Part shown: piece after piece, positions 235 to 14,371 of the stretch
Layout of the letters: every line of letters starts with the position of its first letter
Numbering within the stretch: the first letter of the stretch is position 1
The notes under the pieces: model-generated
Database searches by the model: none
Told to the model about the DNA's origin: nothing
The model's input: only the letters and a program-made list of their open reading frames with translations
DNA from: Hormoscilla sp.
GTDB taxonomy: Bacteria; Cyanobacteriota; Cyanobacteriia; Cyanobacteriales; Desertifilaceae
Assembly: GCA_051439505.1 (NCBI GenBank)
Contig: JBFRWI010000083.1
Location: 1 to 14,649, forward strand
DNA: 14,649 nt
Reading direction: 5' to 3'
Translations under genes and position numbers: made by a program

Positions 235-315
235 ACTGCTGCCTCATTTATCAGTTTGGCACATTGGCAACCGATTAATCTTTAAGTTTTATTAACAAAG
301 GATTCGGGCCAGAAA

Positions 316-592
316 CCAGAAACCGGGTTTCTGCGAGTATTTCCGTATTCTAACTGAGATCTGAAAAGAAACCCGGTTTCTCAACTCCTACCGAAACCCG
401 ATCGCGCCAATACCAGAAACCTGGTTTCTGCGATTATTTTCGTATTCTAACTGAGATCTGAAAAGAAACCCGGTTTCTCAACTCCTACCGAAACCCGATC
501 GCGCCAATACCATAAACCTGGTTTCTCCAAATATTTTCGCATCCGGACCGAGATCTGAAAAGAAACCCGGTTTCTCAACTGGCACCCGATCG
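316..592. repeat. Tandem 97-bp repeat (~2.8 copies), each unit containing the inverted pair AGAAACC(G/T)GGTTTCT ... AGAAACCCGGTTTCT
   Basis: Units start at 316, 413 and 510. Units 1 and 2 are nearly identical; unit 3 has diverged. Matches the AGAAACCGGGTTTCT dispersed repeat type of filamentous cyanobacteria. Confidence 0.9.
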
Positions 593-598
593 CCGCCA

Positions 599-889
599 TT
601 ATCCAGCCATACTTAATAATAGTAAGTAACAGCCGCCATTCAATAAAGCTGTAATCACTGCACCGATAATCACCCCTTTCATCATACTCATGCGGTTTTT
701 CCGTTTCAACCAGATACATAGGGGCACCACATACAGCAATTGCGATATCCCAATTGCTGCGATATATATTAGCAAAACTTGGACTCCTAAAGATGCGATC
801 GCCAAACATATTCCCACGGAAAGCACATTCAGACCTAATAAAATCAGAATGCCCCAAATGACCTGTACAAATTCTCTTCTTTCCGACAT
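599..889 (-). CDS. Small integral membrane protein (96 aa, ~3 TM helices) with C-terminal GAVITALLNGGC motif
   Basis: ATG start and three hydrophobic segments separated by a basic loop (KRKNR). Lies 27 nt downstream of the radical SAM gene on the same strand. Confidence 0.8.
   Translation of the reverse strand: MSERREFVQVIWGILILLGLNVLSVGICLAIASLGVQVLLIYIAAIGISQLLYVVPLCIWLKRKNRMSMMKGVIIGAVITALLNGGCYLLLLSMAG
795..802. repeat. HIP1 octamer GCGATCGC (representative site; dispersed through the window)
   Basis: Also at 1430, 1611, 1727, 3331, 4538 and further sites; a hallmark of cyanobacterial genomes. Confidence 0.9.
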
Positions 890-916
890 CTAAATTGCTC
901 CATTCATGAAATTATC

Positions 917-2329
917 TCATCTTTGGGAAACCAAGTGATGACCAGCGCTAGTTTCCCGGTAAAACATATTAAAGGTGTCAAAGGGAATTATTCTCCCATC
1001 TGGGTGGACGATGTGAATGCAGGAACGCTTCACGGAACGGACATCAAAATTATAGGGGTCGAGAAACTGGACGATCATTACCCGAAAGATATTTTCATAG
1101 GTCAGTCCTGCCGGTACTGGCACCAAGGGCAAGCAGCAGAGTAATTGTTTTAATGAAGTTGCTGCTGACGCCGGTGAATGACCCGTGGAAAACAGTTCAA
1201 AGATTTTGTCTTTGAGTTCTTCCTGCTGTTCGTATAATACCGTGTTGGGGACAACTCGCACGAATTCACTCTCGTCCATCATACCTGTCAGGGGTATCAC
1301 TTTACCATTTAACTTCAGGGCGTAACCCATTGCTAAACAGTCCGGATGACAGGGCACTGGAATAATATCTTCCGCTTTGAAGTGATCGCTCTGTGCTAGA
1401 ATATTACGGCGGACTTCCGTGAGGGTGTAGCGATCGCGCTGGGGATCGAATCCTTCTAAGCGCCCCGCAACTTGAACCGGCTGAAAGGTGACGCCGCGCA
1501 CGCATTTCTGCTGTAAGGCGTAGTCGATGATTTGGCCAATTTCCCCATCATTCAGCCCTTTCTTGACAGTAACTACTAGGGTTGTAGAAATATTGAACTC
1601 GTTCAGATGGGCGATCGCCCGTTCCCGGACGTCCCGCAAATCTGCCCCTCGCAATGATTCCAGGGCGGCTGTCTGAAAACTATCAAATTGCAGATAGACT
1701 TCTATTCCCGGCATGTACTGACTCAGGCGATCGCAGAATTCCCGTTCCTTAGCAATTCTCACCCCATTAGTATTGATCATCAAGTGCCCGATCGGCTTGC
1801 TTTTCACCAGATCCATGATGGCAAAGAACTCGGGATGAATAGTCGGTTCGCCGCCACTCAACTGGACTACCTGGGGTTCTCCCTCATTGGCCACCACCGC
1901 ATCTAGCATGTTCTCAATCTGTGCTAAACTGCGATGTTGTCTGGGTTGATGTCCGTCCGGGAAAAATTCTGCCGCCCCGGAATCAGCATAGCAAATGGGA
2001 CAGGAAAGATTGCAGCGATCGGTCACCTCTATGAGAGTCAAGCAACTATGCTGTTCGTGATCCGGGCAGAGTCCGCAATCGTAGGGACAGCCATATTTTA
2101 TCGGAGTGTTAAACTTGAGAGGCAGATCCCCGGGCTTGATGAATTCCTGGGATTTACGGTAATATTCCACATCATCGGCAATTAACACTTCTTCCCGTCC
2201 GTGGGTGGGACAATGCTTCACTAGGTAGACCCGATCGTCCCGAAAGATGATTTTCGCCTCCACCTTAGTCAGACATTGGGAACAGACGCTATTGGTTAAA
2301 GCATAAAATAGATATGGTCGAGTAGGCAT
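917..2329 (-). CDS. Radical SAM protein, Tes/GDGT-MAS (MJ0619, COG1964)-like, ~470 aa
   Basis: N-terminal CSQC + CPTH (rubredoxin-like metal site), CPYDCGLCPDH (CxxxCxxCxxH auxiliary cluster), CNLSCPIC (SAM cluster), SGGEPT, NTNG, YLQFD, C-terminal CHPDC and RSCIH..DGRIIPFDTFN. Start set at MPTRPY (2329), not the longer ORF start at 2458. Confidence 0.9.
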   Translation of the reverse strand: MPTRPYLFYALTNSVCSQCLTKVEAKIIFRDDRVYLVKHCPTHGREEVLIADDVEYYRKSQEFIKPGDLPLKFNTPIKYGCPYDCGLCPDHEQHSCLTLIEVTDRCNLSCPICYADSGAAEFFPDGHQPRQHRSLAQIENMLDAVVANEGEPQVVQLSGGEPTIHPEFFAIMDLVKSKPIGHLMINTNGVRIAKEREFCDRLSQYMPGIEVYLQFDSFQTAALESLRGADLRDVRERAIAHLNEFNISTTLVVTVKKGLNDGEIGQIIDYALQQKCVRGVTFQPVQVAGRLEGFDPQRDRYTLTEVRRNILAQSDHFKAEDIIPVPCHPDCLAMGYALKLNGKVIPLTGMMDESEFVRVVPNTVLYEQQEELKDKIFELFSTGHSPASAATSLKQLLCCLPLVPVPAGLTYENIFRVMIVQFLDPYNFDVRSVKRSCIHIVHPDGRIIPFDTFNMFYRETSAGHHLVSQR

Positions 2330-2475
2330 GGGTTTATTTCCGATAAACGACAATATTGGCATCAGCGCGGTTTCGCATGAGTTCCCGGGTTTCTCAAAGA
2401 CATGACATCTTTGTGAGGTTATAACATTTTTCAAGATCGATATGATAGACTTTTGCAAGTTCAGAGCGGAAAATC

Positions 2476-3048
2476 ATGGTTTATATACGCGAAATATCCG
2501 CATCAGATTCAGATGTCATTGCCGACCTCAACGCTCAAAGTTGGCGGACGAGTTACCGAGGGATTTTGCTCGATAGTTATCTTGATGGCCCTATATTCGA
2601 GGACTTTCTCAACCTATGGCGAGATCGGCTTTTGAATAATCCTGCACCAGAACATCTCGGACTGCTTGCCCTATCCGGCACATCAGTCGTTGGATTTACC
2701 TTTGCCTCGATCGGTCGCGATGACCGCTGGGGAACCAAGATTAATAGTCTGCATGTGGCCCCCGGATGTCGTGGCAAAGGCGTCGGAACGAGATTGTTGG
2801 CAGCCCTTACTGACTCGCTTCTTAGTCGGAAATACGAGGCCGGGATTTATGTTTGGACGTTCGAGGCGAACCATCGTGCTCGCCAGTATTACGAAAGATT
2901 GGGTGCAAAAGCAATGGAGCACGGCCATTGCAACCGACCGGGAGGCAACAGGGTTGCAGAATGGCTCTATGCCTGGCAATCTGTTAGGCAACTTCAGGTC
3001 GCCAGCACTTTCGCACTTGCTGACAAAATCAGCAGCAACACTATATAG
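2476..3048 (+). CDS. GNAT family N-acetyltransferase
   Basis: Acetyl-CoA motif LHVAPGCRGKGVGTRL and NHRARQYYERLG; N-terminal SWRTSYRGIL is typical of this GNAT subgroup. Confidence 0.88.
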   Translation: MVYIREISASDSDVIADLNAQSWRTSYRGILLDSYLDGPIFEDFLNLWRDRLLNNPAPEHLGLLALSGTSVVGFTFASIGRDDRWGTKINSLHVAPGCRGKGVGTRLLAALTDSLLSRKYEAGIYVWTFEANHRARQYYERLGAKAMEHGHCNRPGGNRVAEWLYAWQSVRQLQVASTFALADKISSNTI

Positions 3049-3055
3049 GAGCCTT

Positions 3056-3865
3056 CTATCTCAGCGGTTCGATCGTGCCCTCCACTATAGTATAACTATT
3101 GCGGATGATCGGAAGCCAAGTAATTAATCTGAACAGAAAAGGCCAACGTTCCGGACAGAGTTGAGGTAGGGATGCGACCTTGACTAAGGACAACCCCATT
3201 GCTGCTACCTCTGCTTCATCTCGAACGTACCACTTGAAGGGAGCACCTAGTCGATCTAACTTATTTTTCCCTGGTGCTAGCTGGGCCACATTCCCCAGTA
3301 CATCCATCAGTAAGGTGCCACCGGGAAAGCGCGATCGCATCTGGTCAACGATCTGTTGCACGTCACCTGCTGCCAAGTACATCAGCAACCCTTCGGCAAT
3401 AAACAGAAAGTTTTCCGGCGGTATTTCTGGCAGGGCATCCATCCAGCTAAAATCTAGCACAGAACTGCTAATAAATTGATGTTGCTCTGTCTGGGTATCT
3501 AACTGACGGCGCAGTTCCGTTACCACGGGCAAGTCCAGATCGAACCAACGATAGACCTTACTGCCAATGCGATGATAGCGAGTAGACATGCCCGCTCCTA
3601 ATTCTACCACAACGGGTTGCGAATGGCTGGCAATGTGTTCCGAGGCTATGCGATCGTGATACGCGGCTCGAATAGCCAAGTAATTCTGATAAGCCCAATT
3701 ATAAAATTCCCCTAGTTCCTCATCCCTAGGCAGAACTTTACTCCATTCTACCGCCAAGGGGTCTGAAAACAGGGGCACCAGACGGTGCTGTTCGTCTGCC
3801 CGTCCTTTTAATGTAAATAGCATGGTGCGGGGGACGCCATCAAGTTTGGGAGTTAATTCTGTCAT
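3056..3865 (-). CDS. Class I SAM-dependent methyltransferase (LCM/TcmP-like O-methyltransferase)
   Basis: VVELGAGMSTR (motif I), WFDLDLP, FIAEGLLMYL. The ATG at 3865 overlaps the Lgt-like stop (ATGA), so it is preferred over 3886. Confidence 0.88.
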   Translation of the reverse strand: MTELTPKLDGVPRTMLFTLKGRADEQHRLVPLFSDPLAVEWSKVLPRDEELGEFYNWAYQNYLAIRAAYHDRIASEHIASHSQPVVVELGAGMSTRYHRIGSKVYRWFDLDLPVVTELRRQLDTQTEQHQFISSSVLDFSWMDALPEIPPENFLFIAEGLLMYLAAGDVQQIVDQMRSRFPGGTLLMDVLGNVAQLAPGKNKLDRLGAPFKWYVRDEAEVAAMGLSLVKVASLPQLCPERWPFLFRLITWLPIIRNSYTIVEGTIEPLR

Positions 3866-4620
3866 GACTGGGGAATTTTTTTCCATGTCAATAAATGTTT
3901 AATGCTACGCCAATAATATCCTAAACCCAGTGCGCAGGCAATCTGGATGGCACTTAGCCCCAGGATAACATGAAAATCTGGCTTCAGGAAATCAATCAGG
4001 AAGCGAAATCCCAGGTAAGCGATGATGTACAATTTGAAGAGGTCACCCTCTTGCCTTTGATAGCGGGCACGAATCTGAATTAAGATCGCCAATGCTAGCA
4101 TAAAGATTATCTCATAGATCTGGGTGGGATGTCGGTAAATGCCATCGCCAAAATCTACCCCCCAAGGTAAAGTCGTGGCTACTCCATAGGTTTTATCGCT
4201 CAACCCCGTGAGAAAACAGCCCACCCGCCCGATCGCCGTAGCCACAATTAGGGGATAGACGAAGACATCCCCAGTCGATCGCCTGACGCCAATCATTTTT
4301 TTAGTCGTTTCCACCCCAATTATTGCTCCTAACAATCCGCCCACGATCGTTTTTCCTTGCAGTAGCAGTAACAGCCACAGTTGCCAACTTTGCCACAGGA
4401 GATAAATATGTTGCAGTCCCACCAGGATTTTCGCCCCCACTAATGCTCCCACCATGCCACCGACTATTACCGAACTCCGCTGACTGGGAGTAATAGTATC
4501 TTGCTTAATTATATTCCGTCGCAGCAGCAACCGAAAGGCGATCGCGTAGGCGAGTACCTCAAACAAGAAGTGCGGATGAATGCGCCAGGATCCGATCTCT
4601 AAATAAACGGGAAATGTCAT
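3862..4620 (-). CDS. Prolipoprotein diacylglyceryl transferase (Lgt) family protein, non-canonical paralogue
   Basis: Multi-TM protein with GRVGCFLTG, YG..TTLPWGVDF, RHPTQIYE and FRFLIDFLK. The canonical GG(M/L)S(F/I)HGG is replaced by GKTIVGG. Confidence 0.85.
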   Translation of the reverse strand: MTFPVYLEIGSWRIHPHFLFEVLAYAIAFRLLLRRNIIKQDTITPSQRSSVIVGGMVGALVGAKILVGLQHIYLLWQSWQLWLLLLLQGKTIVGGLLGAIIGVETTKKMIGVRRSTGDVFVYPLIVATAIGRVGCFLTGLSDKTYGVATTLPWGVDFGDGIYRHPTQIYEIIFMLALAILIQIRARYQRQEGDLFKLYIIAYLGFRFLIDFLKPDFHVILGLSAIQIACALGLGYYWRSIKHLLTWKKIPQS

Positions 4621-4693: not shown

Positions 4694-5074
4694 TTAAGAT
4701 TGACTATCTCGACGGCCCAACTCGTACACGCCGCAGCAGACACAAGCAACTAACCCCATACTAATTGACCAGCTGCGACCTAAAGTGATTTCCACCCCGT
4801 AATTGCACAAACCCCCAGCGATCAGAAAGGGGATAATGCTGAAAATTGAGGCGTAGAAAGAATTTTGGGATTCTCTAGCTTGACGGGTTCTTTCAAATTC
4901 CTCAGTGGAGGTGTATAGCGATCGCTCGGCGAAGTTAAACCAGCGGTTGAGCTGTTCTGCTACCCAGTCCCCTACTGGGGAAAAGCCCAAATACAAGGCT
5001 AGGGACCACAGGGACGTACCGGCGATCGCTGTAGTATTCAGAGTCAACTGAAATGGAAGCATGTCATTTAACAT
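4694..5074 (-). CDS. Conserved cyanobacterial hypothetical membrane protein (126 aa)
   Basis: Hydrophobic segments; motifs LWSLALYLGF, RWFNFAERSLY and GVYELGR recalled from conserved cyanobacterial hypotheticals. Confidence 0.8.
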   Translation of the reverse strand: MLNDMLPFQLTLNTTAIAGTSLWSLALYLGFSPVGDWVAEQLNRWFNFAERSLYTSTEEFERTRQARESQNSFYASIFSIIPFLIAGGLCNYGVEITLGRSWSISMGLVACVCCGVYELGRRDSQS

Positions 5075-12876: not shown

Positions 12877-13170
12877 ATGCAGGGACCGGAACTAAAGATA
12901 GAATGCCAATTCCAAGTACCGATTCCGGAATTACCGGAATTACATAGATTAGAAGCGGAGATGAAAGCCCGATCGGCCTATGTAATGACATTGCTGGGAC
13001 ATGGCGATATCAGCGCCGGACGGGCAGCAGAACTGTTAGGGATCGATCGGGCGGAACTGTCGGAATTGATGAGTGCCTATGAAATCTCGCCATTTCCGCT
13101 GCAGACAATGGCAGAATTAGAGCGTGAAGTGACCCAAGCGATGCAGACTCTGGAGAAATACAAGAAATGA
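12877..13170 (+). CDS. UPF0175 family HTH protein (putative antitoxin), copy 1
   Basis: GDISAGRAAELLGIDR..LSELM motif; ATGA overlap with the downstream PIN gene. Confidence 0.85.
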   Translation: MQGPELKIECQFQVPIPELPELHRLEAEMKARSAYVMTLLGHGDISAGRAAELLGIDRAELSELMSAYEISPFPLQTMAELEREVTQAMQTLEKYKK

Positions 13171-13652
13171 TTGTTGTTGCCGAGGCCACGCCATTAAGCG
13201 AACTGGCAAAAGTGGTGGGACAAATAAATATCTTGCGAGATCTATTTGGGCAAGTGATAGTATCTCAAGAAGTATACAAAGAAGTGACAGTAGGAAAACA
13301 TCCAGCAGCATATGCAGTGCCCTTAGCAACCTGGATAGAAGTGCGATCGGTTTACGATCCTCAGAAAGTATCGGATCTGAGAACTACCAGCTACCTGAGT
13401 TGGAGTGAATCTGCGACCATCGTGCTAGCTGAGGAATTGGACGTAGATTGGGTATTGATAGATGATTTAGAAGCGCGGCGAGTAGCTAACTCTCGCAAGT
13501 TGCCAGTTATCGGTACCATAGGAATTCTGTTGCTGGCTCAACAGCGAGGACTGCTGGATAGCGTCAAAGAAGTTATGGACGCCTTGAAGGCCGAAGGTGC
13601 AGCTATTAGTCCACGGCAATATCAGGAAATTAGCGCGATCGCCCAGGAGTAA
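13167..13652 (+). CDS. DUF3368 PIN-domain protein (putative VapC-like toxin)
   Basis: MIVVAEATPL, VSQEVYKE, SESATIVLAEE, VLIDD.EARR, GTIGILL; coupled to the UPF0175 gene. Confidence 0.85.
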   Translation: MIVVAEATPLSELAKVVGQINILRDLFGQVIVSQEVYKEVTVGKHPAAYAVPLATWIEVRSVYDPQKVSDLRTTSYLSWSESATIVLAEELDVDWVLIDDLEARRVANSRKLPVIGTIGILLLAQQRGLLDSVKEVMDALKAEGAAISPRQYQEISAIAQE

Positions 13653-13942: not shown

Positions 13943-14239
13943 ATGAATGTGAAGATACAAAAACATACGGAGGTGAAATTCACCTTACCCGTTGGTAATA
14001 TCTCCGACCCCATCAGGATAGAAGCAGAACGCCAAGCGAAGGAAGCTTATGTGATGACATTGCTGCGACATGCTGAGATCAGCGCCGGACTGGCAGCACA
14101 TCTGCTAGGGATCGATCGGTGGCAACTTTCGGAGTTGATGAGTGCCTATGACATCTCACCATTTGCAACGCTGACGTCCGAAGAATTAGATCGCGAGGTT
14201 GCCCAAGCTATGCGTACCCTGGAGAAATACAAGAAATGA
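13943..14239 (+). CDS. UPF0175 family HTH protein (putative antitoxin), copy 2
   Basis: AYVMTLL..EISAGLAAHLLGIDR.QLSELMSAY; clearly paralogous to 12877-13170 at both protein and DNA level. Confidence 0.85.
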   Translation: MNVKIQKHTEVKFTLPVGNISDPIRIEAERQAKEAYVMTLLRHAEISAGLAAHLLGIDRWQLSELMSAYDISPFATLTSEELDREVAQAMRTLEKYKK

Positions 14240-14298
14240 TCGTTGTTTCCGACACTACTCCTCTCAGCGAATTGGCAAAGGTGGGAAAACTGGAGTAG
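14236..14298 (+). pseudogene. Truncated DUF3368 PIN toxin remnant (MIVVSDTTPLSELAKVGKLE*)
   Basis: Same ATGA overlap and N-terminus as 13167-13652; ends at TAG 14296-14298, immediately followed by heptamer repeats. Confidence 0.85.
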
Positions 14299-14371
14299 AG
14301 AGCAGGGAGCAGGGAGCAGGGAGCAGGGAGCAGGGAGATCGAGCAGGGAGCAGGGAGCAGGGAGATCGAGC
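14299..14371 (+). repeat. STRR-type heptamer array (GGGAGCA)n with two GGGAGATC interruptions
   Basis: Directly visible tandem AGGGAGC units. Confidence 0.9.

Follow-up and report, generated by a model that had tools for sequence, protein, structure and literature searches.

The 14,649-nt stretch of DNA analyzed here (hereafter the window) is the entire contig JBFRWI010000083.1, our contig C83, from the genome of the cyanobacterium Hormoscilla sp. (GCA_051439505.1); a phycobilisome gene was noted in it. It encodes a paralogue of the diacylglyceryl transferase Lgt, a radical SAM (S-adenosylmethionine) enzyme resembling the archaeal Tes (GDGT-MAS) and a small membrane protein with a candidate acceptor cysteine. 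An original prediction, made from the DNA letters and a list of their open reading frames (ORFs), had placed these three genes and a methyltransferase in a single lipid- or lipoprotein-modification system, and all four minus-strand ORFs were confirmed where it had put them. Three of them constitute the core of the system:

3862..4620, minus strand: Lgt paralogue of 252 aa (PF01790, E 8e-27)
917..2329, minus strand: Tes/GDGT-MAS-like radical SAM enzyme of 470 aa with an HMPTM zinc ribbon (7TOL, E 1.6e-62)
599..889, minus strand: 96-aa membrane protein with three predicted helices, the presumed substrate

The linkage of these genes was followed in three samples, namely the best 80 of 416 relatives of the radical SAM enzyme found among genome contigs, 80 metagenome loci of the Lgt paralogue kept from 540 (38 of them evaluable, having 1.5 kb or more to either side), and 301 genomes of Cyanobacteriota, in which a match of at least 58% identity counted as presence of the radical SAM enzyme. 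The closest relatives of the window genes come from Cyanobacteriota. The Lgt paralogue lies within 6 kb of the radical SAM gene in 67/80 loci of the first sample, and the radical SAM gene stands beside the paralogue in 36 of the 38 evaluable metagenome loci; for one of the 13 radical SAM loci lacking a nearby paralogue (L012), a paralogue of the same organism (P0110) was found. Across the 301 genomes the radical SAM enzyme occurs in 25 and the paralogue in 24, with both in 23, the radical SAM enzyme alone in two (one of them 66% complete) and the paralogue alone in one; a 26th genome has only distant matches to the radical SAM enzyme (30-34% identity). In genome G029 both genes are kept 1.3 Mb apart, which makes their co-inheritance independent of adjacency, and protein P0122 is a single-chain fusion of the two enzymes. 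With small cysteine proteins in 70/80 radical SAM loci (see below), the co-localization of the trio is maintained across Cyanobacteriota, Bacteroidota and in metagenomes, and the expectation of the original prediction that the genes would recur together elsewhere is thus borne out. The link between the three is far above chance: the trio is a conserved, co-inherited module of three genes, not four.

The closest genomes show this module in decay. It is decayed or absent in 4/4 same-genus relatives, none of which has an intact radical SAM gene (0/4). The Lgt paralogues of G004 and G005 are riddled with stops, none of the module genes was matched in G003, and G006 (C1:2500098-2503546; L004, L121) retains a 42-codon remnant of the radical SAM gene, three broken small genes and an in-frame lgt-methyltransferase fusion that arose through deletion. 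This fusion is listed in databases as a 439-aa protein (P0004) and could pass for a functional one. The module also occurs in a cultured cyanobacterium, Tolypothrix tenuis PCC 7101 (L011). Three other records also deserve mention. At L107 and L110 the radical SAM gene adjoins a housekeeping lgt and a gene for a Pro-rich peptide, the paralogue of G041 being on another contig. The record L025, labelled as Actinomycetota, has a radical SAM protein 83% identical to that of the window amidst cyanobacterial-type neighbours, and is probably a mis-binned contig.

We give about an even chance to the reading that the trio is a second, dedicated (orthogonal) lipidation pathway using a radical-modified phospholipid, with the radical SAM enzyme acting first and the transferase second. 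The evidence that bears on this and on its alternatives comes from the two enzymes and from the small proteins. Papers are cited below by PMC number for excerpts of their text.

Retained and altered residues in the two enzymes

The original prediction had both enzymes performing the textbook reactions of their families. This does not agree with their residues: the Lgt paralogue is without the equivalent of His103 of E. coli Lgt, and the radical SAM enzyme is without Tyr459 and Met439 of Tes and has altered C-terminal cysteines.

The overall relationship of the radical SAM enzyme to Tes (Methanocaldococcus jannaschii MJ0619; 7TOL/7TOM; NF045702; IPR034474) is clear: all four domains align, and comparison with 7TOL gives a Foldseek TM of 0.81 and a Z-score of 46.6 (rmsd 2.0 over 400 residues, 32% identity), against 19.8 for the next-best structural family. 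Its best NCBIfam score, 319 bits, is to the radical SAM (seleno)protein TrsS (NF045646), with which it shares the architecture while falling under the cut-off of 490. In a quick-method tree built without archaeal Tes, a 21-row clade has a support of 99. A wider profile covers 145 members of the clade of the enzyme, and 145/145 keep every cysteine of the rubredoxin-like site, the N-terminal auxiliary cluster and the SAM cluster. The C-terminal domain, however, differs from Tes in that the CC motif becomes [S/T]C, PFC becomes PF[D/E], and a new invariant CC appears at 398-399. By position, C327, C398, C399, C437 and H439 are present in 145/145 members, as are Ser/Thr at 436 and Asp/Glu at 451, and C331 is kept in 54/145; among 43 distant homologues, a cysteine occupies positions 331, 436 and 451 in 38, 39 and 38, respectively. 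Tyr459 of Tes is replaced by Ile in 144/145 (Ile440 in the window protein), and Met439 is kept in 77/145 (Val420 in the window protein).

In Tes, a C-terminal [4Fe-4S] cluster held by three cysteines and Met439 holds the first radical in the form of a C-S adduct (PMC9433317, PMC13459092), and is required for C-C coupling; Met439 and Tyr459 show complete conservation in archaeal Tes, yet are dispensable for activity (PMC9433317). Judging by the alignments, the C-terminal cysteine set of the clade is reorganized, and to call its cluster lost would go beyond the evidence: C327, C398, C399 and C437 could act as ligands, with the loop bearing C398-C399 disordered in the model (pLDDT under 50). Carbon-carbon coupling by this enzyme is therefore best described as plausible, not assured.

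The whole-length Tes fold raises the alternative of a free-lipid pathway, in which the radical SAM enzyme would make a macrocyclic or membrane-spanning lipid, the paralogue would move a diacylglyceryl or head group from lipid to lipid, and the cysteine of the small protein would serve only as a scaffold or transient carrier. Bacterial phospholipids are bound by Tes (PMC9433317), a bacterial Tes has been reported in tetraester synthesis (Chen et al. 2025, as cited in PMC13023045), and the residue missing from the paralogue, His103, is the proposed thiol base (PMC8689077). On the other side, Tes homologues were not found in most of the proven diacid producers according to the excerpted text of PMC13159169, and the small partners fit substrates better than one fixed subunit because they are diverse, often in tandem and in some cases apparently exported. 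We consider a free-lipid product unlikely.

Other Tes-like clades were met in the searches. Proteins P0258, P0266 and P0270 are fusions with a methyltransferase, with an NTP transferase and an HD domain, or with DUF5714, and at L235 a Tes-like gene of another clade adjoins a methyltransferase gene. The methyltransferase-linked proteins keep the CC/PFC pattern, are without Lgt and belong to a different clade; these are separate systems.

The Lgt paralogue scores 94.5 bits against PF01790 (gathering score 24.9) and falls below the equivalog cut-off of TIGR00544 (50.6 versus 118.9 bits), whereas the housekeeping copy of the same genome is above it. The latter lies on a separate contig, C146 (E 1.2e-80), which rules out the housekeeping lgt as the identity of the window gene and upholds the earlier assignment of that gene as a paralogue. 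Its model (pLDDT 87) has the E. coli Lgt structure 5AZB as its sole match at E<0.001 (TM 0.61), and its ESM Atlas matches are to LGT clusters only. Unlike the canonical enzyme, it is patchy in distribution, dispensable and coexists with a housekeeping lgt.

Along with the fold of E. coli Lgt (5AZB/5AZC; PF01790, TIGR00544), the paralogue retains R132, H164, E170, Y202 and R206, equivalent to E. coli R143, H196, E202, Y235 and R239, in 61/61 aligned rows. Elsewhere, the active site is different: relative to E. coli Lgt, His103 is Val or Met, Tyr26 is His, Tyr30 is Glu, Met100 is Lys, Asn146 is Cys and Arg246 is Lys. A profile alignment (probability 99.9) equates H17 with Y26, E21 with Y30, K90 with M100, V93 with H103 and C135 with N146. 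The register was displaced around E. coli residues 96-103 in one MAFFT run, while three other alignments support K90=M100 and V93=H103; whichever register is taken, this segment of the paralogue has no histidine. None of the 61 rows or of the 78 metagenome rows checked has a histidine at the His103 position (Val93 in the window protein). H17, K90 and C135 are present in 61/61 rows, and the metagenome rows have H17 in 78, E/D21 in 78, K90 in 77 and C135 in 78; the patterns by which these were fetched fixed H164, R206 and K213, and hence not these four positions. In a control of 30 canonical Lgt rows (one probably mis-extracted), Y26, H103 and N146 were each found in 29 and Lys at position 100 in none. 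In addition, E. coli Glu151 aligns with Thr144, and the paralogue has invariant R48, E104 and K107 at helix ends, placed on the cytoplasmic side by the predicted topology.

In E. coli Lgt, whose active site lies below the membrane interface and faces the periplasm, the positions that correspond to the four new residues belong to the lipid site or the hydrogen-bond network: Y30 and N146 share one buried network of this kind, and Y26 and M100 touch the sn-2 ester. Every H103 mutant is inactive (PMC4728403). As far as the alignments tell, the paralogue is rewired rather than decayed, the base being gone and four new polar invariants lying in the same cavity. H17, E21, K90 and C135 may thus constitute a replacement thiol-activating site. 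By analogy, a His/Glu/Cys set is plausible as a set of zinc ligands: farnesyltransferase and MetE are thiol-alkylating enzymes that use zinc.

Two alternatives turn on these residues. In the first, the cysteine chemistry would be different: the paralogue would be an acyltransferase forming an acyl-enzyme on Cys135 (with Glu21, Lys90 and His17), and/or the radical SAM enzyme would stop at the C-S stage, joining a tail carbon to sulfur. The invariance of Cys135 in all 61 and 78 rows, against Asn in 29/30 canonical sequences, is consistent with this, as are the contacts of Y26 and M100 of E. coli Lgt with the sn-2 ester (PMC4728403), the C-S intermediate through which Tes passes (PMC9433317, PMC13459092) and the Cys-Cys pair, new and invariant in the radical SAM clade, that sits in a loop of poor order. 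Conversely, the phosphodiester- and diacylglyceryl-binding residues (R143, Y235, R239 and E202 in E. coli) are all kept, and an outer-face cysteine would be hard to reach for a soluble radical SAM enzyme; we hold this chemistry to be distinctly unlikely. In the second, the paralogue would be a non-enzymatic membrane dock presenting lipid to the radical SAM enzyme. The changes at the essential His103, Asn146 and Glu151 positions, the fusion protein P0122 and the invariant R48, E104 and K107, located where helices are predicted to end on the cytoplasmic side, could all be accommodated by a dock. Against it, the substitution of other invariant polar residues in the cavity looks like a new active site and not like decay, and the cysteines of the partner proteins would be left unexplained; its chance appears to be very slight.

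Cysteine geometry of the small membrane proteins

The 96-aa protein of the window matched no Pfam or NCBIfam family, and its ESM Atlas matches are to unnamed clusters only. Its Cys87 is 16 residues past Lys71, where the last helix is predicted to reach the outer side, and is followed by a 9-residue tail. This cysteine is present in 40/40 rows of the cyanobacterial alignment, whereas Cys28 and Cys58 are not conserved, and it is placed like the cysteine of an Lgt substrate; the proposal of a small protein with a candidate cysteine thus holds. The helix in question is the third and last of the protein and not an N-terminal cleavable signal peptide, though N-terminal forms occur in some loci.

A search of the radical SAM loci under a strict rule, which called for a small hydrophobic ORF and a C-terminal cysteine in it, yielded 113 candidates, of which 92 remained after removal of 21 Lgt fragments and ORFs above 140 aa. 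These 92 proteins occur in 70/80 loci (70/75 when only loci extending 700 nt downstream are counted), and 21 of the 70 loci hold two to three copies; as a control, 5/63 distant membrane ORFs match the rule. Their geometry is uniform: the distance from the last Lys/Arg to the cysteine is 16-17 residues in 84/92, Gly occupies the -2 position in 83/92, the loop ahead of the cysteine helix is net-positive in 91/92, and the tail past the cysteine measures 2-14 residues. A wider rule found a cysteine gene in 63/68, 10/18 and 30/36 evaluable loci of three sets and matched 146/186 near membrane ORFs against 22/118 far ones; its control, 1/26 housekeeping-lgt loci, is weak, these loci being short with only six membrane ORFs. 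The canonical lipobox [LVI][ASTVI][GAS]C was found in 0/92 proteins under the strict rule and in 6/146 under the wider one.

By its spacing, the stretch from Lys/Arg to Cys has the geometry of an Lgt substrate, and the positive-inside rule would put the cysteine near the outer face, where the site of Lgt is (PMC4728403, PMC8689077). The partners of E. coli Lgt likewise have their cysteine where an in-to-out helix reaches the outer side; unlike Lgt substrates, the partners of the paralogue are without a lipobox and have the cysteine mostly near the C-terminus. Their architectures vary around this constant: mostly the cysteine ends the last helix, and in some cases (11/146 under the wider rule) it ends the first and a further helix follows.

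Some partners are of other kinds. At L130, L135, L141, L143 and L160, the radical SAM gene is followed by the gene of a protein of some 358 aa with repeats that look WD40-like by eye, and the signal-peptide-like start of this protein ends in a non-canonical cysteine motif. In the phylum sample, 10/16 loci examined from other classes (L099-L112) have 61-75-aa Pro-rich peptides of the signal-peptide type with a WF[AS][ST]xAC motif and two further cysteines, adjoining the paralogue or the radical SAM gene. These are the best candidates for a released lipopeptide, and bring up the possibility, present in the original prediction, of a product like a RiPP (ribosomally synthesized and post-translationally modified peptide): signal peptidase II would cut before the lipidated cysteine and the short lipopeptide would be the real product. 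The short tails, these peptides and the presence of lspA in the genome accord with it. However, the tails are unconserved and the helices ahead of the cysteine conserved, some loci have the further helix after the cysteine, and no dedicated peptidase or transporter was noticed in the loci read through, where these were not counted systematically; we take such a product to be very improbable.

A second copy of the small cysteine protein is encoded at G000 C155:4819-5148 (L119), flanked by a long gene with repeats on one side and an unrelated gene on the other, and is possibly a substrate in trans. We also considered if the motif might be a C-terminal sorting tag on large passengers and rejected this: a hidden Markov model of the small family detected no more than two copies in this genome, both stand-alone.

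The proposed pathway and its relation to known systems

The proposed lipidation pathway would run as follows. The soluble radical SAM enzyme would draw an inner-leaflet phospholipid into its Tes-like pockets and abstract a hydrogen from an acyl tail. A tail-to-tail or tail-to-ring C-C link would be the most likely product and carries about half of the weight of this explanation; given the different ligands of the C-terminal cluster, a C-S bond or another alteration of the tail is possible. The Lgt paralogue would next bind the modified donor via the retained Arg132, Tyr202, Arg206 and Glu170, and the acceptor thiol would be activated independently of His103 by His17, Glu21 and Cys135, with Lys90. 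The acceptors would be helices that run in-to-out and finish with x-G/S/A-x-Cys; being without the lipobox of the housekeeping Lgt, they are probably ignored by it. Neither the methyltransferase nor the GNAT acetyltransferase encoded nearby would be required. We infer all of this chemistry from what is observed, namely co-occurrence, fusion, joint decay, folds, residue changes and cysteine spacing.

This order reverses that of the original prediction, in which the protein was lipidated first and the tails cross-linked on it. The latter fits the topology poorly because the cysteine is predicted at the outer face and the radical SAM enzyme is soluble: such an enzyme would reach inner-leaflet phospholipids but hardly a lipid fixed on an outer-face cysteine. 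The changed donor pocket of the paralogue, which suits a non-standard donor, likewise points to the radical SAM enzyme acting first, and so does the finding that, where same-genus genomes have lost the radical SAM gene, the paralogue is decayed too.

Several observations weigh against the proposed pathway. The radical SAM enzyme is under the cut-off of the Tes family (288.4 versus 450 bits), and of the five C-terminal positions where the alignment shows a cysteine in Tes, its clade keeps just one without exception. Catalysis by the paralogue is not assured because the His103 and Asn146 positions are both changed, and in E. coli Lgt His103 mutants are dead and Asn146Ala is inactive (PMC8689077, PMC4728403). 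The homologous membrane protein at L071 has no cysteine, and no small cysteine gene was found at L021 and L077 under the rules used. Some genomes (G029, G041) have the genes of the two enzymes in unlinked places, the kin counted above are not independent of each other, and the organism-labelled sample is nearly all from two phyla. Finally, we know of no membrane-spanning lipids from cyanobacteria or Flavobacteriaceae; a protein-bound product would be a minor one.

A more specific form of the pathway, which we regard as doubtful, is that a macrocyclic or membrane-spanning lipid is welded by the Tes-like enzyme and put on the non-lipobox cysteine by a metal-dependent Lgt variant whose His/Glu/Cys site takes the place of His103. 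If true, small membrane proteins and some exported ones would be riveted through the bilayer by a new class of protein lipid anchor, in aerobic bacteria that are not known to make such lipids.

The system apparently is undescribed: it is new as a system, with each enzyme a variant of a known family. Bacterial Mss and acidobacterial Tes share radical SAM tail-to-tail coupling with the proposed chemistry, and no link to Lgt or to a protein substrate was seen in the excerpts of PMC13159169 and PMC13023045; Mss is only remotely related to Tes (PMC13159169). Bacterial Tes homologues of unknown activity were noted by Zeng et al. (PMC8941075) and Lloyd et al., and such homologues have been discussed as candidates for making brGDGTs (the branched form of glycerol dialkyl glycerol tetraethers; PMC11868695, PMC10087280, PMC13274423, PMC13023045) and used as genomic proxies for brGDGT producers, with an activity described as unconfirmed (PMC11868695). 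The words 'lipoprotein' and 'diacylglyceryl' are absent from the main text of PMC10087280, PMC13274423 and PMC13023045, as is 'lipoprotein' from PMC8941075 and PMC13459092, and no paper pairing a Tes homologue with Lgt was found in a search that had supplements and most subscription journals outside its reach. In distinction to Tes, the enzyme described here is below the family cut-off and co-inherited with the Lgt paralogue. Many of the hits behind the brGDGT proxies may not make membrane lipids at all, since its clade passes such BLAST filters, is tied to an Lgt paralogue and to partner proteins, and differs in its C-terminal cysteines.

The view of Lgt has so far been that of a single reaction, a single catalytic histidine and a single lipobox. 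If the proposed pathway is true, a second lipidation code would exist in a widespread paralogue whose active site is rebuilt and which has a substrate signal of its own, and its coupling with radical chemistry on lipid tails would constitute a protein modification for which we found no precedent. With three small genes, the system is directly testable in E. coli.

Neighbouring genes and repeats in the window

Three further genes lie among or next to the core genes:

3056..3865, minus strand: LCM/TIGR00027-type SAM methyltransferase (PF04072), a genus-level accessory or passenger and non-core
2476..3048, plus strand: GNAT acetyltransferase of 190 aa (PF00583), a later insertion outside the system
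4694..5074, upstream of the Lgt paralogue: conserved cyanobacterial 126-aa protein with no Pfam family

The original prediction had described four tightly spaced, co-oriented genes. The ORFs and the tight junctions stand: the stop of the lgt-like gene overlaps the second in-frame ATG of the methyltransferase gene (ATGA), and the radical SAM stop is 27 nt from the small membrane protein gene. The uninterrupted run does not, as the plus-strand GNAT gene splits it, converging on the methyltransferase gene and diverging from the radical SAM gene. A contig of a related organism joins window positions 2331 and 3066 without the GNAT gene, with 80 other letters between them, and a contig from another study carries the arrangement of the window; the GNAT gene is thus a real, later insertion, and the uninterrupted four-gene run is probably the older local arrangement. 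Given its opposite strand, its occurrence in 0/160 outside loci (80 radical SAM loci and 80 metagenome Lgt loci, with 0/80 in each) and its being skipped in the relative, we rejected it as a member of the system.

The methyltransferase, too, is found in 0/160 of these loci (0/80 in each set), which rules it out as a core tailoring enzyme and removes it from the system originally predicted, its association being limited to the genus-level lineage. Remnants of it adjoin the lgt-like gene in 3/4 same-genus genomes, and this preserved pairing marks it as a genus-level companion; in view of the ATGA coupling and the three remnants, it may have a lineage-specific role. A paralogue 60% identical to it is encoded on C228. 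The upstream 126-aa gene was likewise rejected as a member, being adjacent in 6/80 loci and present in 4/5 genomes without the module.

A promoter and terminator scan stayed at chance level (8 versus 6.3 and 2 versus 4.3), and contigs from an RNA library span the genes of a relative, such contigs being no proof of transcription. Directly downstream of the small gene, window positions 315-605 hold three tandem 97-nt repeats with internal inverted repeats. There are 45 blast matches on 31 contigs, and the 15-nt core motif occurs in 356 copies in the genome. This is a dispersed element like the REP (repetitive extragenic palindromic) sequences, and a terminator role is also possible. Far from the module, positions 12877-13652 encode a UPF0175 and DUF3368 gene pair, which resembles a toxin-antitoxin pair; a second UPF0175 copy is at 13943-14239, its downstream partner apparently broken by short tandem repeats at about 14290-14370.

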